Below are positions 1 to 11,575 of a stretch of DNA of 64,000 nt, in pieces. The DNA comes from an uncultured Anaerolineales bacterium (lineage in GTDB: Bacteria; Chloroflexota; Anaerolineae; Anaerolineales; UBA11858). Made by a program: the position numbers and the translations under genes. Each line of letters begins with the position of its first letter. Position 1 is the stretch's first letter. The notes beneath the pieces are model-generated. The model searched no databases, was not told where the DNA came from, and saw only the letters and a program-made list of their open reading frames with translations. The stretch is taken from assembly GCA_964622645.1 (NCBI GenBank), contig CAZUSV010000001.1, positions 5,317 through 69,316 on the forward strand. The letters run 5' to 3'.

Positions 1-48
1 CCGGCAGATGATCAAACTGGCACATCTGCTGCTGATTTCCTGGTAGCC

Positions 49-2718
49 TTGCATTCCGTTTTTAGTGACCTAGAGCCGGGTGTCAGCATAGACCCAGGTC
101 CAAACCAGAGAACGCAAACCGTACGCTATATTGGGTCGACAGAACGCACGGCATTTGGCTGGATCATGTTCGAAGCCGACCGCTTGATGAAAAATCTGTC
201 CCTTGGCGAAGATAACGAGACCGGGGAACCCATCACGTCAGCTGTGCCAGGGCATGGCACTATGTTTGATTTTAGCTTTGCTTATCCTGGTGAAACAGGT
301 GTGGAAATCCGACGACGTTTCTGGTTTACGGTTGCCAATGTCCAATTGGGGCACACTGAGGACGGTTTGGGAATCGTCTTCCAAGACATCGACATACAAG
401 TTGAGACAGAATATCTCGATCAGAATTGGCAGACGCTCGAGATCCAGATGCCCGATCCAGCCGGGCAAGCATTTGCTGACCAACTCACCCAACATTATGA
501 TGAATATGCCCAAGAATTTCCCGTGCTGCGAGATCTAGAATCCCTGGTACGTTGGATGGCACTGGCGCGTTGGATTGAGGAAACCCCCCAGGTTATCAAT
601 ATCGATGCCCTGTTGTCTACGCCGGTTGACCTGATCGATACACCGGAAATGACGCCGGCCATCACGGTTGAACAAAGCCGTTCGACCACAACCAGTACCG
701 GTGAAGTCATCGAGACGATCACACTATGGGGTGGTGTTGATTTAGATTTCTCAATCGAATACTCAGACCTTGCTGCAGAAGAGGCTAATAACTTAGCAGC
801 TGCGATCGAAACGCAAAAAGAATGCGCCGGTGCGCGTTGTTCCCAGGCGAGTCGCGACGAAAATATCACTTCTCTGCAAACCTCAACTCTTTACAAAGGG
901 TATAGCTTAGACCTGGAGTTACCAAGTAGCCTGAGTTCAATCGGTGGTGAAAAAGTATTCACCATGATATACGATTCGACTTCCTCAGAATCTAATATTT
1001 CTAGTCCTGGTTGGTTGATTGGAGTACCTCATCTGGAATTTCCTCTCCCCGAACAAGAATACGAAGAATGGAATGAAGAACTTTATCCCACCATTGTCTG
1101 GGTGGATACTATTCAGGGCCACAGTCACCCAATGGTTTATCAAGGGAACATTGATGAGCAGGGAAATCTTTTATACATCAATCAAGAAGCCGGATTATTG
1201 CTAACCTGGAACGCGAGTGGATTTTCTCTTCAAAAAGCAACTTTTTACCCAGATGGAGGCTATTCTCAAAGTTCAGAATTCAGACAAGATTTCAATCGGG
1301 ATGGATTCTCCGTCAAATGGGTGTCAGATAGTGGCTCGCTTGTTTCGTATGCTTATACTGGTGGTTTGCTGAAAAAAATCTCTGGGCCTGAGGGTGATGT
1401 AGATTTCAAATACAATCAAGCAGGGAATCTCATCCAGATCACAAATCAGGAAACTGGTGATAGCCGGCGGTTTGACTATAATGATCAGGGACATTTAGTA
1501 AGAACAATTTCAACTGCTGGTGCAGTAATTTCTAGCTTTGTATATGATGATGACCAACGTTTAGTCGAGCAACGTAATGGGGATGACATTATTGAAAGCC
1601 AGCTGGCCTATGATAACTCAGGACGACTCCTCGCTCGAACGCATGATTCGACTGTTCTGGTTTACGATTGGCTGGCTGATGGGGGGGCACGTATTTACGG
1701 TTTGGGGGCTGGTAGTTCCCATTGGGTAGAGGGCTTAGGCACCCCAGTTCTAAAACAACTTGGAACAGTGATACGTATTTCGCTGCATGGAGCAAGTGTT
1801 GATCATGTTTTATACGTGCGTAAACTCGATGATAAAGCCTTGATGCTATTGGATGGCCGTACGCATGTACTACCTCTTGACGCGCTATCGAGTTCGAGAA
1901 TATTTCGGAATGCAATCAATGAGCTGAATCCTGCTATCAATCCAGATGATATTGTGCTGGTAGCAGATGGGGACAGTCAGGATATTGACTTTCAAGCTGC
2001 ATTTCCTGATTACCGCTGGCTGACGTCTGAGGGTTTGGATGAAAGTCAAATTCTACGCAATTTAGATGATTTTGAGTCTTTGGAGGTTCTTATGCCAGAT
2101 GTGACTGAGCTTTTCCTTGGCGTTCCTAGACCAGAAGAGGTTACAAAAGTTGGATTGAAAGCAGCAAATCGGGGGGACTGGGCAGGAGTTCTTGAGCAGT
2201 ATATAGAACTGGCAGAACGTTGGGATTTCGAACCTGCCACGGTTCAGCCTGAAAAAAAGTTAGCACAGCGAATGGAAGAGGCTTTTAAAGACAAAGCGGC
2301 TGTACTCATTGTGGTCGCGCATAGCGATGGCGAAAAAATATACTTACCAGATGGTACCTATTTTTCACCCGATGAACTATCCCAAGATGCAAGAGACGCA
2401 ATTGCAGCTAACAGGCCGGTGGTTATCTTAGTAAGTTGCCAGACAGCTCAGATGAATGATACTCGCTCTCTGGCCAAAAAATTGATTGATTTGGGAGCTC
2501 GTTTTGTTGTAGCACCCAAGGGAAATATCCCTGCTGTTTCCACGGTAGAATTCTTAAAGTCGTTTTTTGAGAACTCGGCAAAAAACCAACGCATTCCTGA
2601 CGCGTTATGGAATGCCAGTAGATTTATATACGAAATATATAAAAATATCCAATTCGAAAAAATAATTGGCCAAACCCCTCCGATCGATCAAGATATCAAG
2701 GAAAATCGGAGAGTATGA
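49..2718 (+). CDS. YD/RHS-repeat protein with C-terminal CHAT-like (caspase-fold) peptidase domain; frame is open back to nt 1, so the true start may lie upstream of the window
   Basis: 889-aa ORF; TTG at 49 is only the first in-window start. YD-repeat words: YAYTGGLLKKISGPEGDVDFKYNQAGNLIQITN, RRFDYNDQGHLVRT, FVYDDDQRLVEQ, LAYDNSGRLLART. The C-terminus has a His...Cys dyad context like CHAT domains: VLIVVAHSDGEKIYL ... RPVVILVSCQTAQ. Assignment from motif memory. Confidence 0.6.
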   Translation: MHSVFSDLEPGVSIDPGPNQRTQTVRYIGSTERTAFGWIMFEADRLMKNLSLGEDNETGEPITSAVPGHGTMFDFSFAYPGETGVEIRRRFWFTVANVQLGHTEDGLGIVFQDIDIQVETEYLDQNWQTLEIQMPDPAGQAFADQLTQHYDEYAQEFPVLRDLESLVRWMALARWIEETPQVINIDALLSTPVDLIDTPEMTPAITVEQSRSTTTSTGEVIETITLWGGVDLDFSIEYSDLAAEEANNLAAAIETQKECAGARCSQASRDENITSLQTSTLYKGYSLDLELPSSLSSIGGEKVFTMIYDSTSSESNISSPGWLIGVPHLEFPLPEQEYEEWNEELYPTIVWVDTIQGHSHPMVYQGNIDEQGNLLYINQEAGLLLTWNASGFSLQKATFYPDGGYSQSSEFRQDFNRDGFSVKWVSDSGSLVSYAYTGGLLKKISGPEGDVDFKYNQAGNLIQITNQETGDSRRFDYNDQGHLVRTISTAGAVISSFVYDDDQRLVEQRNGDDIIESQLAYDNSGRLLARTHDSTVLVYDWLADGGARIYGLGAGSSHWVEGLGTPVLKQLGTVIRISLHGASVDHVLYVRKLDDKALMLLDGRTHVLPLDALSSSRIFRNAINELNPAINPDDIVLVADGDSQDIDFQAAFPDYRWLTSEGLDESQILRNLDDFESLEVLMPDVTELFLGVPRPEEVTKVGLKAANRGDWAGVLEQYIELAERWDFEPATVQPEKKLAQRMEEAFKDKAAVLIVVAHSDGEKIYLPDGTYFSPDELSQDARDAIAANRPVVILVSCQTAQMNDTRSLAKKLIDLGARFVVAPKGNIPAVSTVEFLKSFFENSAKNQRIPDALWNASRFIYEIYKNIQFEKIIGQTPPIDQDIKENRRV

Positions 2719-2878
2719 TTATGGCCTTATTTGGATACCCTGGCACGGTCTGTGCTTACAGCGAGCCTCGCCGCTATGCGCGCCTTTGGCGGGTCAGACC
2801 GGCCTAAGCCCTTGAAAGGAAAACGAACGGTTACTTTGTTTACAGAGTATTAGCAATATTGCCAGAAGAGCCAATTCA

Positions 2879-4900
2879 ATGGCCAATTCAACAGGTGAAA
2901 AACCAAAATTGAATATTTTCGCCTTACCCAGCCAGACGACCCTGCTATTCTGGTTGATGGTCGTGGTGTTGCTAGCGGCTGTGATGCTTGGCAGCATTGG
3001 CCGTTCACCTATCCTCATCTGGCCCATGGCGGTTGGATTGTTATTCCTTCCGCTACGGGCATACCTGGCGCGCCCTGAGCGCGATTTCAAGCGCTTTGGT
3101 TTGGAGCATGCAGGGGAAGAATTTGCTCCTATCCGACAAGCTATAATGATTTACGCCATCAAATTGGGGTTGAAAAGGCATCCTGGGCTCGTAATCAGTC
3201 AAAGAGATATCCCTTTCCACACTTTCGGGACTTTTCGTCGTTGGTTTATAGCTATCGGACGAGAAGAAGCGGTAGATTTACTAGAGAGGATAAAAAATCC
3301 GGCGACTGCCTCCCAGGCATACGCCATGATCATTCACGAGCTTTATCATTTCAAAACGGGCGATTATTGGAAGATGGGCTATACAGGGGAATTATTGAAG
3401 ACGACCTTTATATTTTTAGGATGGGGGATTGCTTTCTTCTATGGGCTTGGGTTGTTGCTGGTTGTGGCTACTCCGGATTTCCTGGCGCTCAACCCCTCCG
3501 ATCTGATTTCGCAAATTGAAGGGATAACACCGGGAATGCAGCAAACCATGGTCCAACTATTGCCATCCGCAGCTGATATGGGCGTAATGCATCAAAGAGC
3601 GGCTGGGATAAATATGTCTTTGGTGCTCAACTTCATTATGAGTGCTATTTTCCCATTAGTTTTGATTGCCTTTCTCTTGTGGCGTTTTTACTGGCCCAAA
3701 CTTTGGCGAACACGAGAGTACTATGCCGACGCGGGCGTAGTGCATACTCAAGGAAAAATTGCACATTTTTTGTTAAGTTTTATCAAAGAGAAGTCACTCA
3801 AAGAAAGAGAAGAAAAATTTCAGCCGCGTGAAGATAATCGGTTTATTGCATGGTGGAGAAAACTATATGATGGCATATTGGATATGTCTCCCGCTTTTGT
3901 CCCAAGTTATGGCGCTTATACGGAAGAAGGTTTGGCTTCTCTATTTAATGGCGAGGTGATCCAGAGATCCCGTGGACAAAAAATTATCGCATGGTGGAAG
4001 AGAGTCACTTCTTACCATCCGGAAGTAATATCTCGAATTAATTGCGTGAAGAATCCTGCCTTGGCGTTTGACACCTGGTGGAGTACGGCTTTTCACGTAG
4101 GAAGCCTGACACTTCTACTGGATATTCTACTGAGTAGCCCATTAACATTAATTCATGTAGGTAACTGGCCGATGCATTTTTCCACCCTGGTCATCCTGGT
4201 GACAGTGTCGCTGGGATTTATACTCCCAACAATTGCACAAGGAAACCTGGTTTGGTTGGATCTAATTAAAATTGTTGGTCTGGTCGTTGGATTACGTCTG
4301 GCATGGCTTGCTTTTACTGTCTTAGCATTGTTTGTATCTCTTGTTATGGCTCCTGAATATCTCTCAGAGGCCCTCGAAGCTGCGGTGGCTAGCGTAGCAC
4401 ACTATGCGGGTTACGCAGATGACCTCGGTTTTGCTGATATAACTTCATTCTTACTGAGAGCAGCGCTACTCAACCTGGCTCAGATCTTGATCATTTTCTT
4501 CCTGCTCTTGTTCTCGTTGTATAGTATTGCTTGGTTGCTGCGTCGCCTCTTGACCTGGTACGGCTTCCCGCAAGTAGAAATACGCTTGATGCCGGTTGCT
4601 TCTCTGGTCGTTGTTCTGTGGGCAATTTTTACCGGGTTTACGATTTTGATGCCTATCACCCTGGCACTCTTGCATCCTGCTGACTTGATCAGGCCAGTTT
4701 ATCTCATATTGGAGTTGATTGGTTTCCTCCTGGCTTGTATTGGGATTGGTGTATTCACTCTAGCCGATCGAAAGTTCTCCAAAAGGTGTCCAAAATGCGG
4801 AACAGGTATCAGTGGTTTCTATTGGCTAGGTAAGTGTTGTGAAAATGATCAGTGCAAGGAAAAGCTTTTGCCCTGGTTGATCGCGGAGTATGAAGTGTGA
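2879..4900 (+). CDS. polytopic membrane protein with M48/M56-like HExxH zinc-metalloprotease motif and C-terminal Cys-rich zinc-ribbon
   Basis: 673-aa ORF with many hydrophobic helices. HExxH in AMIIHELYHFKTGDYW. C-terminal CPKCGTGISGFYWLGKCCENDQC. ATG start. Confidence 0.55.
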   Translation: MANSTGEKPKLNIFALPSQTTLLFWLMVVVLLAAVMLGSIGRSPILIWPMAVGLLFLPLRAYLARPERDFKRFGLEHAGEEFAPIRQAIMIYAIKLGLKRHPGLVISQRDIPFHTFGTFRRWFIAIGREEAVDLLERIKNPATASQAYAMIIHELYHFKTGDYWKMGYTGELLKTTFIFLGWGIAFFYGLGLLLVVATPDFLALNPSDLISQIEGITPGMQQTMVQLLPSAADMGVMHQRAAGINMSLVLNFIMSAIFPLVLIAFLLWRFYWPKLWRTREYYADAGVVHTQGKIAHFLLSFIKEKSLKEREEKFQPREDNRFIAWWRKLYDGILDMSPAFVPSYGAYTEEGLASLFNGEVIQRSRGQKIIAWWKRVTSYHPEVISRINCVKNPALAFDTWWSTAFHVGSLTLLLDILLSSPLTLIHVGNWPMHFSTLVILVTVSLGFILPTIAQGNLVWLDLIKIVGLVVGLRLAWLAFTVLALFVSLVMAPEYLSEALEAAVASVAHYAGYADDLGFADITSFLLRAALLNLAQILIIFFLLLFSLYSIAWLLRRLLTWYGFPQVEIRLMPVASLVVVLWAIFTGFTILMPITLALLHPADLIRPVYLILELIGFLLACIGIGVFTLADRKFSKRCPKCGTGISGFYWLGKCCENDQCKEKLLPWLIAEYEV

Positions 4901-5520
4901 AGATGAAATCTCGTTTGCTAACCTGGGTAACACGACTTTGTTGGGCAATTGTACTGCTTGATTTGTTGTTGATCTTTATTTTTCCATCCGAAATCTTCGC
5001 TGACAACCTGACCATGATGCTAGCCTACACTGTCTGGCTTTTGCTCACATTGTTTCTTACAATAACGTCATTGATGGTAATTTATCGCGGCTTATTTCAG
5101 TCTTGGATAGGTTGGATAACGCCGATTATCATATTAATATTCAGTAATTTGTTTTCCTCCGGTCAAATCCAAATCCATAATCCCAGGTTGTCCTTTTTTT
5201 ATGTCTTGCTTACCACTTTCAGTATGTGGGGGGTTGGTGTTGCTACGATAATTTTCCTTTGGTACCGGGATGTTGGATTGAAGCTGATAGCTTCAACATT
5301 AGTCATATTCACATGGGCTGGTTTTTTTATATGGTATTTCCAGGGCAATATATTTGATTTGCTGATTGCTAGTATAAATCAACCGGAAGTGACCTCACCT
5401 TTGTGGTGGCTCAATCCTTTCTTGTGTGTTTTTTGGTGGGTTATTCCTATTGGAATTAGTAGTTTCATTGTACATACTTTTCGAATCTTCGCCCGTGAGA
5501 TAAACCGTTCCAAATCTTAA
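4897..5520 (+). CDS. integral membrane protein, unknown function
   Basis: 207-aa ORF, about 6 hydrophobic helices. Its start overlaps the stop of the upstream gene by 4 nt (GTGA), which suggests translational coupling. Confidence 0.5.
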   Translation: MKMKSRLLTWVTRLCWAIVLLDLLLIFIFPSEIFADNLTMMLAYTVWLLLTLFLTITSLMVIYRGLFQSWIGWITPIIILIFSNLFSSGQIQIHNPRLSFFYVLLTTFSMWGVGVATIIFLWYRDVGLKLIASTLVIFTWAGFFIWYFQGNIFDLLIASINQPEVTSPLWWLNPFLCVFWWVIPIGISSFIVHTFRIFAREINRSKS

Positions 5521-5786
5521 TTGAGTAACTTTCGTAACCATTCGCTGGGGATGGATTAAGATAGTAGGGGTATTGTAGATAATAACTCTGTTAGTGTGGC
5601 ATAACCTCGAGAATAAGAACGCCTTCTAATTTGCCAAGTGATGTTTGTTGATATAGGCTTGTCAGTGTAAGAATCAGGAGATATTGGGGATAGTAATTAA
5701 TAGCAGAACATGTGGTTTCCTTATGCTACACAACCACGATTCTTTCTATATCACCCGTAACCCATTTTGTTGAAGTAGCCCCGACC

Positions 5787-6704
5787 ATGAATGAAAAATT
5801 AGATGCTATAGATAATACTCTAGTGGCTCAAGCCACAGCAACTACCAAACAGCACAACCCAACTGCCTATTTGTTGTCGAATTTATTGCACGATAAAGGA
5901 ATGACCCCAATATTTTGTCTTGTCTACGCATATTTCCGCTGGTTGGACGATTATATTGATGAATCAGGTACGGAATCTTTCTTATGTCGCCAGATGGTAG
6001 CTAGCCAAAAAGAACTCTTGGTTGAGGCTTATTCTGATCCCCGAATGTCAGCAAGCTCTATCCGTGAATCAATGCTAGTCACAGTTGCTAATTTTGACAA
6101 GAGCAGGCGAATGCTGTTGAAAACATCGATTTTTGATATGTTTTCAGCCCTCGAATGGGATTCTTATAGACGAGGAACGGTTGTATCATCTAAAGAATTA
6201 GCTCAGTATTCTTACTGGTTGGGTCGCTCCTACACAAAAGCTCTTCAGGCATGTATTGCTTACCCTTATGAGTATCCTGATCATGGATATAAATACTATG
6301 CTGGAGTTGGTGCCCATATTACTCATATTGTGCGTGATTTATTTGAGGATCTCGCAATGGGGTATATCAACATATCTAAGGAAGATATCAGGCGTTACTC
6401 GATAGATATTCGATGTCCAACTGCAACATCGCTGCGTGCGTGGACGCAAAAAACTGTATTATCTGCACGCAAGTATCTAAATTGGGGTAAGTTGTACCTA
6501 AATACACTGCCGATATTTCGGTGTCGATTAATGGGTTATTTGTACTGTTCGCGCTATGAGATGGTTTTGGATGCGATAGAGGATGCGAACTATGATTTGT
6601 CGATGAATCGATCTGAATCAGTTCGCAAAGGAAAATACTATTGGCAGGCTATCTCGAATGCTATATCAAGTCCAATGATGCGAGGCCACTTGCGAGTAGT
6701 ATAA
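5787..6704 (+). CDS. squalene/phytoene synthase family (head-to-head trans-isoprenyl diphosphate synthase fold), divergent
   Basis: Asp-rich motif 1 YAYFRWLDDYIDE; motif 2 region GAHITHIVRDLFEDLAMGYINISKED. The ORF track starts at GTG 5712; ATG at 5787 (MNEKLDAI) is preferred. Confidence 0.65.
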   Translation: MNEKLDAIDNTLVAQATATTKQHNPTAYLLSNLLHDKGMTPIFCLVYAYFRWLDDYIDESGTESFLCRQMVASQKELLVEAYSDPRMSASSIRESMLVTVANFDKSRRMLLKTSIFDMFSALEWDSYRRGTVVSSKELAQYSYWLGRSYTKALQACIAYPYEYPDHGYKYYAGVGAHITHIVRDLFEDLAMGYINISKEDIRRYSIDIRCPTATSLRAWTQKTVLSARKYLNWGKLYLNTLPIFRCRLMGYLYCSRYEMVLDAIEDANYDLSMNRSESVRKGKYYWQAISNAISSPMMRGHLRVV

Positions 6705-6726
6705 ATTATTGTAAGAGGAAGAGATC

Positions 6727-7557
6727 ATGATAGGTTATTCTCGCAGCCTAAGACTTGAATTGACGATGAAAGATATCGTTCAAGAAAATCAATATTATTG
6801 TGGATTGTGTCATGCACTACGTTTTGAAAACGGTACTCTTTTTTCCACATTGACAAATTATGATGGTCGTTTGGTTGGCATGCTTGTTGATGCCCAACGA
6901 ATTAATGAGCCCACCCAAGAAACGACAAAATGCCCCAGTCCTCCTTTCATCCATGAGCGAGATATTGTTGCTTATGGATCAACCACTCGATTTTCTGCTG
7001 CCCTCACAGTTTTGTTGGCTAGAGAGAAATTGTCGGATAATGTAATCGATGATTCAAATAAGCTTTCAAGATTTCTCTTGGGAAAGATTGATCCTTATGC
7101 AAACCGAGCCAAAGATACTTTGATGGAGTTGGGATTTCCCGTTGAAGAGATCGATGAGTTAAGGAACAGACAAGAGAATGTAGAGAAACAGACAGGTATT
7201 GAGCTAGACGAAATTTGTGCTCCAACATCGATGACACTTTCGCTGATTTTTCGGTTTACGGCTCATCTTTCAGGTAACCCTGGAAATATAAAAGAATTAG
7301 GAATGCTTGGTTCTGAGGTGGGAAAGGTTATATGTATGTTGGATGCTCTGAAGGATCTACATGCAGACCTCAATAAGAATCGCTACAATCCAATCGCTAA
7401 TTGTTTTGGAATTAATCTCGGGCAACAATTAACTTTAAAGGTGTACACAGAAATCCTTGCACTTCTCACAAGCCACCTACAATCAATTCATCGGTCTGTG
7501 CAAAAATTACAAATTTATCGCTATCGACATCCATTAGAGAATATTTTTTTGTGTTAG
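6727..7557 (+). CDS. DUF5685-like protein (uncharacterised family)
   Basis: N-terminus MIGYSRSLRLELTMKDIVQENQYYCGLCHALR...LTNYDGRLVGMLV matches my recollection of the DUF5685 signature (MxGY..EL...YYCGLC...L.YD). Lies 22 nt after the previous gene. Needs HMM confirmation. Confidence 0.45.
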   Translation: MIGYSRSLRLELTMKDIVQENQYYCGLCHALRFENGTLFSTLTNYDGRLVGMLVDAQRINEPTQETTKCPSPPFIHERDIVAYGSTTRFSAALTVLLAREKLSDNVIDDSNKLSRFLLGKIDPYANRAKDTLMELGFPVEEIDELRNRQENVEKQTGIELDEICAPTSMTLSLIFRFTAHLSGNPGNIKELGMLGSEVGKVICMLDALKDLHADLNKNRYNPIANCFGINLGQQLTLKVYTEILALLTSHLQSIHRSVQKLQIYRYRHPLENIFLC

Positions 7558-7597
7558 TTTTCCTCACCAAATCCAAAAAGCGCTTGATGCATTATCT

Positions 7598-8005
7598 GTG
7601 AATTCTGAGTGGGAGGGAGATCTTGCTCCCCCAATAGATGCTCAGCTCTGTCACTGCACTCGCTGCACTTCTATTCGTGAACAGGTAGATCATTGGCGTG
7701 TATATTTTGCCGAGAAAGCCTCTGACCTGCGCCCCGAGTGGGCTGCTGGAGCCCTACGGGAATTGCTGGGATTTGAAGATGCTTTGGGTAGGCGATGGAT
7801 ACAAGGGCAGTTGAAGAAAATGAGTACTGTGTATTTTGCAGCACTTCCATTACTCACTTTGCGACCCTTACAGCAGAGCAATCCTACTTGTGAAGATTCA
7901 TGTTCAGAGGGCTGTGGTGGATGTTGTCTTACGTATATGCTTTTATGTCCGTGTAGTGGTGAGGAGTGCACAATCTGCTGTTGTATGGGATCAGGTAATT
8001 ACTAA
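7598..8005 (+). CDS. hypothetical protein with extremely Cys-rich C-terminal tail
   Basis: 135-aa ORF (GTG start, no clear RBS). CHCTRC near the N-terminus. Residues 98-129 (CEDSCSEGCGGCCLTYMLLCPCSGEECTICCC) carry 11 Cys. An alternative ATG at 7820 would give a 61-aa product. Confidence 0.4.
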   Translation: MNSEWEGDLAPPIDAQLCHCTRCTSIREQVDHWRVYFAEKASDLRPEWAAGALRELLGFEDALGRRWIQGQLKKMSTVYFAALPLLTLRPLQQSNPTCEDSCSEGCGGCCLTYMLLCPCSGEECTICCCMGSGNY

Positions 8006-8069
8006 GTTCATGATGAGCCTGAAATTGATATCTCCCATAAGTATTGAATCTCGACGATAGGATCAAGAT

Positions 8070-9932
8070 ATGATCACCAAATACACTATTACTAACAACT
8101 TTGTTCTCTTATTGTTGATTGTCTTAGGTATTGGGGTGACTTTAATCGGATTTAGGAAAAACGATAATCCCCTCGAGAGAATGAATTGGATTATATATCC
8201 AACTTTTAATTTTTTTCTTGAGGCTGATTCTGTTCATCGGCCCTTCATGTCTACCGGTGATAGAATACATGAATCATGGATCGGCAAGAGTTATTGGTCT
8301 TCAAAGAATGAAAAGATAGATGGATTTGGAATGGGGTCATCCGCTCACTTGCGAGTTGGTGCGGATCAATTAGAAGCGGCGCTTGATGAATTGAAATCAA
8401 TGAATGTGCATTGGGTGAGAGAAGAAATCCCTTGGGCAGAAATCGAACCTTCGCCGGATTCTTTTCGCTGGGATTATTCTTTCGGAGAGACTCCTCGTGA
8501 TTTTTCCTTGCTCGTTTCTGAATTAGAAAAGCGAGATATCGAAATTGTGGCTCTCCTAGATTATGGCCCTATTTATGGAAATAAACCCATCCCTGAAGAT
8601 AAATTACTCATCCGCTGGGAGAATTATGTTCAAGCAGTGGTTATCAAATTTGGAGATCAGATAGATCATTGGGAGATCCAAAATGAGATGAATAGCCCTT
8701 TGTTTTGGGGGAAAGTTATATATACAGGGCAAAGCATAGATGCGCCTCCAGATCCCGAACTGTATACAAAAATGCTAGATCTTGCTTACACAGTAATCAA
8801 AAAACACAGTCCCGATGATGAGGTTGTCTTAGGTGGGTTAGTGGGTAATGTAAACGATAATTGTGAGACAAATCCTTTTGATTACCTTCATAAAGTACAT
8901 CAGGCTGGGGGTTGGAGTTCGTTTGACGTTATAGCAATACATCCTTATTGGGAAGCCAATCCACCAGAAGCTTTTATCAATCGTGGTCGGGGCCATTCTT
9001 CGGATTCAGGTGCTTGTCAATGGGATCAAACTGCAAATTACAATATGATCGGAGAGGCTCGTGCAATTCGCGACCTGGTCAATCAATTTGGTTCAAAACC
9101 TATTTGGGTCACAGAGGTAGGTTGGAGCCAAGGCTGGCTTGAAACATTAGCTGGTTATCGTGGCACAGATCCTGATTTTGCGGAGGCTGATTATCTAACC
9201 CGAACTTATATTCCGCTCCTTTCGGAACCAGGAGTGAACAAAGTGTTTTGGTATACACAATATGATGATCCTGGTATTTGGGATCAGTTTGCATTGGATT
9301 CGCCGGGCCAACAGGCTTTCCAGAATTTATCTTTCCTACTGACAGGGAGTACCTCACTTGGTCAATCCCAGGGGCAAGGAGATCAGGGCCTTCCAGGTGA
9401 CGATGATGTTTATGAATATCGTTTTGAAAAGGAGGGACAACTCATAATTGTGATTTGGAAATCGCGCGGAGGTGATGTCCCTCGAGATGTCACCATCAGC
9501 GATGTTGATGTTGATGAAATGCGCTTGTACAATCACGATGCTGATGACTTTTCTCCTGATGCAGGACGTGAGATTATTGTAGAAGATGGCAAATTGACCG
9601 TAAAATTGACAGAGCGTCCTGTAATCTTGATTTCTAGCGAGCTAAATTTGTTGGAACGCCTCCAATCAGATGCTCAGCGGAGAGTCGATGAATGGGTACA
9701 AGATCAAACTGAGAAAATATCTCGACAAATTGATGAATGGTGGCAGCGTCAGAGAGAAGAACTTGAACGACGGCTTACGGAATGGCTGCTATCCCAGTGG
9801 GAGAATTTTATTCAACAGCTTGAAGACGCTATCAACCGTTGGTTAGAAGAACAGTGCGCAAGTGTTGGCTTTGTTTTATTATTACCCCTGTTTGTATTAA
9901 TTGTCCGTCGAAAACAGAAGAAATCTGTGTAA
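8070..9932 (+). CDS. clan GH-A glycoside hydrolase (GH5/GH39-like) with N-terminal signal-anchor, C-terminal Trp-rich coiled coil and C-terminal TM anchor
   Basis: Acid/base motif HWEIQNEMN and nucleophile motif IWVTEVGW. N-terminal LLLLIVLGIGVTLIGF. C-terminal VDEWVQDQ...IDEWWQRQREELERRLTEWLLSQWENF...NRWLEEQ followed by GFVLLLPLFVLIVRRKQKK. Confidence 0.7.
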   Translation: MITKYTITNNFVLLLLIVLGIGVTLIGFRKNDNPLERMNWIIYPTFNFFLEADSVHRPFMSTGDRIHESWIGKSYWSSKNEKIDGFGMGSSAHLRVGADQLEAALDELKSMNVHWVREEIPWAEIEPSPDSFRWDYSFGETPRDFSLLVSELEKRDIEIVALLDYGPIYGNKPIPEDKLLIRWENYVQAVVIKFGDQIDHWEIQNEMNSPLFWGKVIYTGQSIDAPPDPELYTKMLDLAYTVIKKHSPDDEVVLGGLVGNVNDNCETNPFDYLHKVHQAGGWSSFDVIAIHPYWEANPPEAFINRGRGHSSDSGACQWDQTANYNMIGEARAIRDLVNQFGSKPIWVTEVGWSQGWLETLAGYRGTDPDFAEADYLTRTYIPLLSEPGVNKVFWYTQYDDPGIWDQFALDSPGQQAFQNLSFLLTGSTSLGQSQGQGDQGLPGDDDVYEYRFEKEGQLIIVIWKSRGGDVPRDVTISDVDVDEMRLYNHDADDFSPDAGREIIVEDGKLTVKLTERPVILISSELNLLERLQSDAQRRVDEWVQDQTEKISRQIDEWWQRQREELERRLTEWLLSQWENFIQQLEDAINRWLEEQCASVGFVLLLPLFVLIVRRKQKKSV

Positions 9933-10380
9933 TATAAAAATGCACTCTTTTTCTTGGATAATTGCTTGATGAAGTTGGATCGGTTTACCCGCATATTTAT
10001 TCCACAGCCCCGCCTTAACTTTGCCCTTCTCTTGCTCGCTTATGTTGTAGTTATCGGCTAAGGTTGCGCATTGCTCATTGTCCGTTCGCCAACAATATTT
10101 GCACACAGTATTCTGATTCTGTTGATATACAGCGGTGGAATGACAATGATTATGTTTGCCGTCGCCATGGGAAAAAGATGATAATTTGTACGAACGCAGT
10201 TAGAGCACCGTTGGGTAAGACAAGAGATCCAAGTGAGAGTGCATAGGGCGCAATTTTTTGTTTGGTTCGTCGCGCATCACTTGTTGTGGATATCTATTAG
10301 CAGCATTTCAATTTACTCTTTTCTGTTCATCTTTGGGATAAAGAATTGGATTCTTACTTTTTTAAGGCTCGGAATGTGGG

Positions 10381-10708
10381 TTGACTCCTTACACGGGGAG
10401 AAGTACAATTGTTCTAGTTCTGAATTGAGAGAAAAGAAGCTCTTTTAAATGAAGAAAGCTGCACAAGAAGTGCAGCAGTCACTCAGATTGTCTTATAAGT
10501 GGTTCTGCGGGGTTCTGTCCCCCTATTTTTACTTCGGGTGGTGTTCCCCTAGGGACGCATGGCGCACACCCCCGTCGGGACCGCCTGAAGTAAAAAACAT
10601 ATGACAGCCTGGTGTAACGTGAGTTGCTCCAGGCCTTTTTTGTTAAGAGACCGGGAGAATCTCGGTCATTTTTGATTCTCGGAGGTAATAAATGGAAAAA
10701 TCGATATG
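10381..10708 (+). repeat. copy 1 of a roughly 320-bp structured non-coding repeat (hairpin, 16-bp conserved stem with variable apex, two terminator-like hairpins)
   Basis: Collinear with 25822-26134. Hairpin GCTGCACAAGAAGTGCAGC. Stem arms TTTTTACTTCGGGTGG (10526-10541) and CCGCCTGAAGTAAAAA (10581-10596), 16 bp if two G-U pairs are allowed. GCCTGG...CCAGGC followed by a T-run. GACCGGGAGAATCTCGGTC (10649-10667) followed by a T-run. Confidence 0.8.
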
Positions 10709-10910: not shown

Positions 10911-11162
10911 ATGGTTACTGTAGGAGTACGAGAATTAAAACAGCAGGCCAGCGAGTTGATCCGCCAGGTACGTGAGGATGGCCAGGAAATTCAGGTAACT
11001 TACCGTGGTGAAGTTGTTGCACTGGTCGTACCTGTAAAAAGCCCACCAGAATCTGATAGTACAGCAGCCTGGGATCGCCTGGATGTGCTGGCGGCAGAGA
11101 TCGGTGCGCGCTGGCCAGAAGATGTCACCAGCGTCGAGGCTGTCGCCGAGGGGCGTTCATGA
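10911..11162 (+). CDS. type II antitoxin, Phd/YefM family
   Basis: MVTVGVRELKQQASELIRQVREDGQEIQVTYRGEVVALVVP. RBS GGAGG 5 nt upstream of ATG 10911. 4-nt overlap with the PIN gene. Inverted repeats CCACAAATGTGG / CATTTGTG at 10874-10896 are candidate operators. Confidence 0.75.
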   Translation: MVTVGVRELKQQASELIRQVREDGQEIQVTYRGEVVALVVPVKSPPESDSTAAWDRLDVLAAEIGARWPEDVTSVEAVAEGRS

Positions 11163-11575
11163 GTAAGTATCTCGTTGTCGATGCCAGCGTGTGGGTTGCC
11201 CGTCTGATTGCTCAAGATGCATTTCATGATCTCAGTCGTCGATGGTTGAATGTGCAGCGAGAACACGGGGTGCAATTTGTTGCTCCGACACTTTTGTTAG
11301 TCGAAGTCGCAGCTGCAATATCGCGCCGCACGGGGGACAGAGAGCTGGCAAAGCAGGCAGTGGAAGCATTGGAAGCTTTGGCTGACTTGCGTTTGGTGGA
11401 AATGGATCAGAGTGTTGTTCAATCCGCTGTTAATGCAGGCGCTGATCTGGGTGTGCGTGGCGCAGATGCATTTTATATCGCCATTGCCCAACAACTGTTC
11501 CTGCCTTTGGCTACTTTGGATAAGGATCAACTAGAACGTGCTAGTGACATGGTGGAGACAAAAACAATCGCCTGA
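11159..11575 (+). CDS. PIN-domain ribonuclease toxin (VapC-like)
   Basis: 138 aa. N-terminal LVVDASVWV (first acidic residue), internal LLLVEVA, C-terminal GADAFYIAIAQ...ATLDKD. Immediately follows the Phd-type antitoxin. Confidence 0.75.
   Translation: MSKYLVVDASVWVARLIAQDAFHDLSRRWLNVQREHGVQFVAPTLLLVEVAAAISRRTGDRELAKQAVEALEALADLRLVEMDQSVVQSAVNAGADLGVRGADAFYIAIAQQLFLPLATLDKDQLERASDMVETKTIA

Follow-up and report, generated by a model that had tools for sequence, protein, structure and literature searches.

A cysteine string at the C-terminus of a split DUF5685 gene of an uncultured Anaerolineales bacterium and its coupling to a domain with a predicted isoprenoid-synthase fold

A Cys-dense open reading frame (ORF) was analysed in a stretch of 64,000 nucleotides (nt) from an uncultured Anaerolineales bacterium (contig CAZUSV010000001.1, positions 5,317 to 69,316; assembly GCA_964622645.1), referred to here as the window. 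The ORF (7598..8005, + strand) encodes 135 amino acids (aa), and its Cys-string core (7889..7984, + strand) holds 11 Cys in 32 aa, CEDSCSEGCGGCCLTYMLLCPCSGEECTICCC, at residues 98-129, followed by MGSGNY. An earlier sequence-only reading had given the coordinates and sequence of this tract exactly, and the tract is a conserved C-terminal tail. Among about 128,000 segments of 32 residues in the six frames of the 64 kb, a single one reaches this density of 11 Cys; the second-best open frame (at least 100 aa) has 5 Cys per 32 residues, and the mean Cys fraction is 1.8%. The Cys peptide is very probably the C-terminal cysteine-string module of a DUF5685 protein of about 425 aa, the gene for which has been split by a one-base insertion; the 135-aa ORF makes up the linker and the Cys tail, approximately residues 291-425 once the full-length protein is reconstructed. 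The beginning of the extension carries a CHCTRC (C-x-C-x2-C) motif (7649..7666, + strand), which is shared with a 38%-identical relative, L100 (CNCPTC). The 135-aa ORF showed no Pfam or NCBIfam match at E <= 0.01-0.1, a word-indexed search with it as the sole query was empty, and exhaustive phmmer returned only three spurious matches to repeat proteins; the tail is therefore not traceable by its own sequence.

The DUF5685 domain is encoded by an ORF of 276 aa (6727..7557, + strand, 0 frame) that ends in ...HPLENIFLC-TAG. In the Pfam search, this ORF matches PF18937 with E 2.3e-40 across positions 1-262 of the 272 model positions, and it scores 139.2 bits against a gathering cut-off of 26.7 bits (134.7 bits for the intact allele of a sister strain). 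After ...ENIFLC, the DUF5685 frame meets the stop TAG at 7555-7557, while the tail frame (+1), which is open from 7538 and hence from 5' of GTG 7598, reads RIFFCVSFPHQIQKALDALSVNSEWEG... and continues the larger gene. The two frames overlap for 17 nt (7538..7554, + strand), between the +1-frame stop TAG at 7535-7537 and the 0-frame stop TAG, so that any frameshift or slippage must fall there. A T7 homopolymer (7544..7550, + strand) within the overlap is the +1 frameshift site; in the DNA alignment, the window has A+T7 where the sister strain has G+T6. The next 16 codons of the tail frame, CVSFPHQIQKALDALS (7550..7597, + strand), lie 5' of GTG 7598 and contain no start codon.

In the sister strain, which co-occurs with the window type and is 86% identical here, DUF5685 and the Cys-rich ORF form one frame. 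The full-length sister protein (P0008, 429 aa) was found on six contigs. A shorter sister protein (P0002, 378 aa) comes from contig L010, in which the gene is cut by a diverging contig 5' end. The first 100-110 nt or so of L010 differ from all other sister contigs, with destruction of the CGLC motif, and this divergent end is probably a chimeric contig end that explains the truncated call of P0002. Exact-sequence look-ups matched the window to contigs of marine metagenomes. The window and 9/9 window-type contigs (JGI, ENA and Logan assemblies; several samples) carry T7, and 7/7 sister contigs, some of them from the same samples as the window type, carry T6; polymorphism of the gene within each haplotype is zero. 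Some sequencing platforms are error-prone at homopolymers, and the extra T could in principle be a sequencing or assembly artefact in a gene that is really intact; this is extremely unlikely, however, given T7 in 10 independent contigs and T6 in all seven sister contigs, partly from the same samples. Phase variation between T6 and T7 was considered and rejected, as run length is strictly tied to the two haplotypes, which diverge by about 14%, with no mixing.

The coding constraint on the two parts of the gene was estimated from the window and sister alleles as the ratio of non-synonymous to synonymous substitution rates (dN/dS, Nei-Gojobori method). The DUF5685 part has a ratio of 0.19 and the whole 150-codon extension one of 0.10; in the 37-codon Cys tail, with 14 synonymous changes and one non-synonymous change, it falls to 0.008. 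The 16 codons at 7550..7597 differ from the sister allele by five synonymous changes and encode an identical protein sequence. The low dN/dS and the upstream conservation indicate that the frame is coding and that it reaches 5' of both starts that had been considered for the ORF, GTG 7598 and an internal ATG at 7820. The conservation is not confined to the tail, a point that the sequence-only reading had raised; synonymous-only change runs upstream past both starts to the T-run.

Neither GTG 7598 nor ATG 7820 is a conserved gene start. The GTG had been described as lacking a ribosome-binding site, and indeed no purine-rich Shine-Dalgarno-like run precedes it, whereas AGAGGAAGAG is present at the DUF5685 start (6727) and several neighbouring genes carry a ribosome-binding-like purine sequence. 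The doubt that had been cast on this codon as the true start was justified; it is an internal Val codon in the 429-aa sister ORF. The internal ATG (7820..7822, + strand) is ATC (Ile) in the sister allele. The product of ATG 7820..8005 would be a peptide of 61 aa beginning MSTVYFAALPLLTLRPLQQSNPT, which had been suggested as a separate, leader-core precursor. A stand-alone precursor of this kind, resembling those of ribosomally synthesized and post-translationally modified peptides (RiPPs), is hardly credible. Its layout, a hydrophobic N-terminal part followed by a Cys-rich C-terminal part, bears a superficial likeness to such precursors, and a weak purine-rich stretch lies 5' of the ATG, but the start codon is replaced in the sister strain, which encodes a single protein of DUF5685 plus tail, and protein conservation in the same frame reaches 270 nt upstream of ATG 7820. 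Furthermore, the tract forms the C-terminus of proteins of 330-500 aa in more than 25 other lineages, and RiPP maturation genes (cyclodehydratase, LanM/LanB, radical SAM, RiPP recognition element) were not found nearby. The neighbours at the locus are an SQS_PSY-like gene, DUF5685, a gene for a glycosyl-hydrolase-like protein and genes for proteins without a family.

As to the present state of the split gene, T7 is probably, though by no means surely, a recent frameshift mutation that has become fixed in the population, with the full-length protein either unmade or made by rare slippage. The 16 codons at 7550..7597 encode part of the last DUF5685 helix (267-291) in the structural model described below, and because the break falls inside this predicted helix and not in the linker, a recent disruptive mutation is favoured over fission or recoding. 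Three points weigh against this reading: with only two haplotypes, the frameshift is not datable; the low dN/dS fits continued expression as well; and there is no second lesion downstream of the T-run, which keeps fission and recoding alive as alternatives.

If the split is a fission that the strain tolerates, the DUF5685 protein of 276 aa would cooperate in trans with a separate Cys protein of 135 aa translated from GTG 7598. Firmicutes keep the same modules on two proteins as a rule, the split allele is fixed and clonal in at least four biosamples, the 151 downstream codons carry no second lesion and have a low dN/dS, and the 135-aa ORF is annotated by some gene callers. Fission is nevertheless improbable, in view of the missing Shine-Dalgarno-like sequence at GTG 7598, the position of the break within the last domain helix, and the 16 perfectly conserved codons, which would stay untranslated. 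Recoding at T7 would involve either a +1 shift of the ribosome on UUU-U or slippage during transcription with loss of one U, and the expected junction peptide of the full-length product is ...HPLENIFCVSFPHQIQK (containing ENIFCVSFPHQ). The 17-nt frame overlap consists mostly of the slippery U7 run, the downstream frame is unbroken and purifying selection acts on it, the start-less 16 codons included, and the allele is fixed in the population. Recoding must be judged quite improbable all the same: the sole close relative is in frame with T6, which leaves no conserved recoding signal, the A-site codon UUG is neither a hungry nor a stop codon, and the Shine-Dalgarno-like element upstream is weak. 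A run of seven is also short for efficient slippage of RNA polymerase.

The gene also contains the boundary between the two haplotypes. The window is 100% identical to the sister contig L011 over nt 1-6827 and about 86% identical from 6828 on, inside the DUF5685 gene (segments compared: window 1-6827 and 6828-9953; L011 1275-9272 and 10045-11687). The sharp drop in identity at the first mismatch, 6828, points to a recombination breakpoint within the gene, between co-occurring strains. The identical 6.8-kb stretch holds the RHS/CHAT, 673-aa, 207-aa and SQS-like genes. Downstream of DUF5685, the sister strain (L011 9306-11666) has an Amidase_3 domain in frame with a glycosyl-hydrolase-like domain and with a stop inside (...PWSEI-stop-PSPDSFRWDY). 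In the window (8070-9932), the amidase part is absent and an intact ORF of 620 aa has a different N-terminus that contains a transmembrane segment. The split DUF5685 gene in the window and the stop-interrupted amidase gene in the sister strain amount to one broken gene per haplotype in a variable segment.

The pairing of DUF5685 with Cys strings was followed in a reference set obtained by a profile scan of GTDB species representatives, which comprised 80 loci among 262 relatives. Two further loci, L017 and L018, encoding the distant homologues P0012 and P0010, respectively, bring the set to 82 loci. A scan of the genome contigs with the DUF5685 protein of the window alone returned no matches, and the profile (A2) was required. 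A Cys string is present in cis or next door at every evaluable DUF5685 locus of the 82-locus set. A cruder tally of the metagenome loci gave a Cys string in 58/67 evaluable cases (80 loci).

Fused C-terminal tails were identified at 26 loci, where the proteins are 330-500 aa long and carry 7-25 Cys within the last 60 residues. These loci come from Acidobacteriota, Armatimonadota, Anaerolineales, Saprospiraceae and Heliomicrobium, and also from two high-GC metagenome-assembled genomes (MAGs) labelled Deltaproteobacteria/Pseudomonadota. At least one transmembrane-like segment lies beside the tail in 19 of the 26 fused proteins. The distant homologue P0012 (450 aa), for example, which was retrieved with the full-length protein as query, contains DUF5685, two hydrophobic segments and a 19-Cys tail, GWCDSCECCCCDGGCCDGCDCCSGCCDNCDCGGCCDCSCD. 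The closest intermediate relative of the window gene, L100 (3399-4436), whose DUF5685 is the 38%-identical one mentioned above, has a zinc-ribbon-like tail, CNCPTCGKAINSRFCTNCG (CNCPTCG...FCTNCG), with no Cys string, and keeps the SQS-like gene upstream.

The DUF5685 proteins of Firmicutes are about 288 aa long and tail-less. Clustering of the neighbouring ORFs revealed a protein of about 205 aa with a J domain, TPR and a Cys tail adjoining DUF5685 at 54 loci, essentially all of the tail-less ones. The J domain of this neighbour was recognized with E 3e-18 (DnaJ), and the C-terminal string has 10 Cys. At least six Cys occur within the last 35 residues of 52/54 J proteins, the tail consensus being C-x2-C-x2-LL-C-AD-CCC-E-C-MGGD-x-I-x-CC, and 35/52 end in -CC. 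At 44 loci there is, in addition, a polytopic membrane protein without a family, about 175 aa long. The three-gene unit of Firmicutes (L022-L099) has the order DUF5685, J-domain and TPR protein, polytopic membrane protein, as in L026 of Caloranaerobacter azorensis (genes at 5870-6478 and 6445-7014). A hidden Markov model (HMM) of this polytopic membrane protein gave no match to the 207-aa membrane protein of the window or to the ORFs of its first 20 kb. L018, the only other locus that is both complete and tail-less, represents a third way of pairing DUF5685 with a Cys string; here the tail-less DUF5685 (P0010) overlaps the start of a 600-aa protein without a family (8885-10687) that contains GCDCDCGGCDAEGCDCNGCDCCDC.

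The tail of the window, C..CC.TYMLLC...CCCMGSGN, loosely resembles the tail of the Firmicutes J proteins, C..C..LLCADCCCECMGGD. A post hoc pattern linking the two was found in 30/54 J tails, in 0/1,923 other ORFs and exactly once in the window; this regular-expression link is suggestive at best. An HMM of the Firmicutes J-protein tails gave no scorable matches when run against the fused tails and shuffled sequences, which leaves homology between the tail types unproven. The Cys string and DUF5685 are genetically coupled across phyla, and we infer from the gene arrangements that Cys strings are obligate partners of DUF5685, either fused to it or carried by an adjacent J-domain/TPR protein.

A structural model of the full-length sister protein P0008 was obtained with AlphaFold2 (AF2). 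The model is all-helical over residues 1-290, with a predicted local distance difference test score (pLDDT) of about 80-95, and the extension has a pLDDT below 50. In a Foldseek search against the PDB, all of the top 50 matches are enzymes of the isoprenoid-synthase fold, including MoeN5 (E 3e-4, TM-score up to 0.65 on the target), the Trp prenyltransferase Ord1, and geranylgeranyl diphosphate (GGPP), hexaprenyl and octaprenyl diphosphate synthases. Among 21 diverse family members, the residues G3, C25-G26-x-C28, C69, K101, D104, D108, E153, G199, D206, D210, D214 and N221 are invariant. The motifs tested were MxG, CGxC, C69, KLxDxxxD, DAxxDxxxD and the N of (Y/F)N(P/A), and all of the family-invariant residues are present in the window protein and in P0008 (alignments A2 and A4). 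A profile of the 21 sequences has its best PDB sequence matches among GGPP synthases, at a marginal E of 0.04, and aligns KLxDxxxD (K101/D104/D108) with the first aspartate-rich motif (FARM) and DAxxDxxxD (D206/D210/D214) with the second (SARM) of these enzymes. Comparison with the SQS-like neighbours by hhalign (E 1e-3, probability 21%) pairs the same motifs with the two Asp-rich ones of those proteins. The Asp motifs of DUF5685 are of the DxxxD type and not the canonical DDxxD. These three lines, weak but independent, suggest that DUF5685 belongs to the isoprenoid-synthase superfamily as a divergent member. The N-terminal motif YCGLCHAL (window 6796-6810; CGxC invariant) has a weak, non-significant match to WCGHCKAL of protein disulfide isomerase, and the resemblance of YCGLCKAL to WCGHCKAL is at the motif level only.

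A squalene/phytoene-synthase-like (SQS-like) gene of 305 aa lies immediately upstream (5787..6704, + strand, counted from ATG 5787, with GTG 5712 as the start of the mechanical ORF) and ends 22 nt before the DUF5685 start. Its product matches Pfam SQS_PSY with E 3.7e-14 and keeps both Asp-rich motifs, FRWLDDYIDE and RDLFEDLAMGY. Against NCBIfam, only weak sub-threshold matches to HpnC, HpnD and CrtB were obtained. An SQS_PSY-like gene adjoins a gene for DUF5685 plus tail in four lineages, namely the window and its sister, L100, L020/L101 and L021/L036. The identity of the SQS-like proteins to that of the window is 39.6% in L020/L101, 34.5% in L100 (with the same gene order) and 25% in L021/L036. 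In L020, an Anaerolineales MAG, a gene for a geranylgeranyl-reductase-like flavoprotein (FAD_binding_3, GGR_cat; 7142-8359) directly follows the SQS-like gene, and the SQS-like, geranylgeranyl-reductase-like and DUF5685-Cys genes form a three-gene isoprenoid-flavoured cluster.

Further upstream and on the same strand are genes for an RHS-repeat/CHAT protein (49-2718), a protein of 673 aa (2879-4900) and a polytopic membrane protein of 207 aa (4897-5520). The 673-aa and 207-aa proteins have no Pfam or PADLOC match, and the 207-aa protein has none in NCBIfam either. Both haplotypes keep all three upstream genes together with the locus. Just downstream (10911-11575) lies a gene pair for a PhdYeFM antitoxin and a PIN-domain toxin. 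The RHS/CHAT and PIN neighbours prompted the idea of a defence system, which was dropped as PADLOC gave no matches. No Rfam family was detected anywhere in the 64-kb window. The rest of the window resembles an ordinary chromosome, with genes for xylulokinase, dehydrogenases, and FHA and TPR proteins. The left half (1-33000) has a G+C content of mostly 42-47%, which rises locally to 50-55% at 16-18 and 26-32 kb, and contains the RHS/CHAT, DUF5685, toxin-antitoxin, FHA and TOMM-kinase-like genes. The right half (34000-64000) has a G+C content of 50-59% and contains genes for sugar metabolism, xylulokinase and oxidoreductases. Possibly, the left half is an island that varies between strains.

The tail may serve as the S-prenylation acceptor of a DUF5685 enzyme that resembles trans-prenyltransferases; this is the preferred mechanism, proposed tentatively and with a less than even chance of being right. 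The DUF5685 domain would use Mg2+ and the Asp motifs to bind a prenyl diphosphate, and would transfer the prenyl group to the thiolates of the Cys string, in analogy to the pair of enzyme and peptide in ComQ-ComX but with Cys and not Trp as the target. The product would be a lipidated membrane anchor, formed in cis here and in trans in Firmicutes; at the membrane's cytoplasmic face, the Cys string would be the acceptor or ligand module of the domain, and the adjacent SQS/PSY-like enzyme would belong to the same isoprenoid pathway. The sequence-only reading had remarked in passing that the segment would suit a membrane-embedded, acylated or prenylated element, and this remark gains circumstantial support from the predicted prenyltransferase-like fold, the SQS-like neighbour and the tails that abut transmembrane segments in many homologues. 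Enzymes that resemble isoprenyl diphosphate synthases of the trans type (trans-IDS) and prenylate peptides are known, namely ComQ, PalQ and ChrPC (PMC13290415).

Several points weigh against S-prenylation. All characterised trans-IDS-like peptide prenyltransferases target Trp (PMC13290415, a 2026 review). The sequence links to prenyltransferases are marginal (E 0.04; hhalign 21%), and the AF2 model was built from a shallow alignment of six sequences. The SQS_PSY neighbour is confined to the subclade of the window and is missing at the loci of Acidobacteriota and Firmicutes. In the searchable literature, DUF5685 occurs in a lone in-silico annotation paper, PF18937 is unmentioned and no member has been biochemically characterised. 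Finally, the Firmicutes tails have rigid Cys spacing with conserved D, E and GGD, and in this they resemble a folded knot that binds metal more than a string for lipidation.

In the main rival reading, the tail binds metal, be it as a metallothionein-like module, a Zn/Cu cluster or an Fe-S-like site, and is not a site of lipidation; DUF5685 would use or be regulated by the tail, for instance in metal or redox sensing at the membrane. This reading is possible but on the unlikely side. The composition of the tail is metallothionein-like (Cys, Asp/Glu and Gly; CC, CxC and CxxC), the Firmicutes pattern is fixed as C-x2-C-x4-C-x2-CCC-x-C-MGGD-x3-CC with invariant D and E, the L100 protein has its zinc-ribbon-like CxCxxC...CxxC tail instead of a string, and the CGLCKAL motif of the domain is like the CGHC sites of thiol oxidoreductases. 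Conversely, no metallothionein or other metal-binding family was matched, and a prenyl-diphosphate-binding fold and an SQS-like neighbour are unconnected with metal storage. Tail length and Cys number also vary across lineages, from 7 to 37, a variability that suits a low-specificity string better than a defined cluster site.

In a broader form of the S-prenylation proposal, which must be considered doubtful, DUF5685 proteins would be trans-IDS-like protein prenyltransferases with cysteine strings as the targets of S-prenylation, and would form a widespread class so far undescribed. The modification would take place in cis in the clade of the window, Chloroflexota, Acidobacteriota, Armatimonadota and Bacteroidota, and in trans on the adjacent J-domain/TPR co-chaperone in Firmicutes, and the products would correspond in bacteria to the lipid-anchored proteins of the cysteine-string and Rab types. 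In the subclade of the window, a dedicated SQS-like enzyme would supply or modify the isoprenoid.

The annotation of the locus can be corrected, in that the 135-aa hypothetical gene is the out-of-frame C-terminus of the DUF5685 gene. A rule also emerges, by which a domain of unknown function with a predicted prenyltransferase-like fold is nearly always paired with a cysteine string, and the Cys tract probably leads to a new variant of a known enzyme class. No description of an obligate Cys-string partner, a prenyltransferase-like fold or an SQS-like neighbour of DUF5685 was found in the searchable literature, which likewise contained nothing relevant on bacterial cysteine-string J proteins. 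If S-prenylation is true, this would be the first native bacterial system for prenylation of protein Cys, and would extend the trans-IDS-like peptide prenyltransferases beyond Trp. If metal binding is true, it would be a new metal-thiolate module on an isoprenoid-fold protein. Either way, the family is directly testable by simple expression and mass spectrometry.

Comparison with known systems begins with PF18937 itself. The gene body of the window gene matches this family at E 2e-40 with all invariant residues; the model, however, describes only the domain of about 270 aa, and the Cys-string partner lies outside the family definition. The SQS-like neighbour matches SQS_PSY with both Asp-rich motifs, as do HpnC, HpnD and CrtB, but scores far below the equivalog cut-offs of these enzymes and is partnered with DUF5685 and not with hopanoid or carotenoid genes. 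The metallothioneins SmtA and BmtA share with the tract a very high Cys content, CxC, CC and CxxC motifs and few aromatic residues. The tract differs from them in having no family match and no His ligands, and in being the tail of a large enzyme-like protein that is frequently juxtamembrane in homologues.

Among eukaryotic proteins, the cysteine string protein (CSP, DNAJC5) consists of a J domain and a lipidated Cys string that is S-palmitoylated by DHHC enzymes, and the tails of Rab proteins (CC/CXC) are doubly geranylgeranylated by geranylgeranyltransferase II (GGTase-II), an alpha/beta-barrel enzyme. The Firmicutes J-domain neighbours share this layout, with a Cys string and often a -CC end; the likeness is one of architecture only and no homology is claimed. 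The window protein differs from CSP in having no J domain in the Pfam search, and DHHC enzymes and GGTase-II are both absent here. Further parallels are provided by ComQ/ComX, PalQ, the P domain of ChrPC, Ord1 and MoeN5, which have the same all-alpha isoprenoid-synthase fold that is predicted for DUF5685, with two Asp-rich motifs. DUF5685 differs from these trans-IDS-like prenyltransferases in its DxxxD and DAxxDxxxD motifs, where they have DDxxD, and in an additional triad of CGxC and Cys; it is partnered by a Cys string, to which it is often fused, and the sequence likeness is at the marginal level of E 0.04. In the ComQ-ComX system, the enzyme is genetically coupled to a short peptide substrate, as DUF5685 is to the Cys string.

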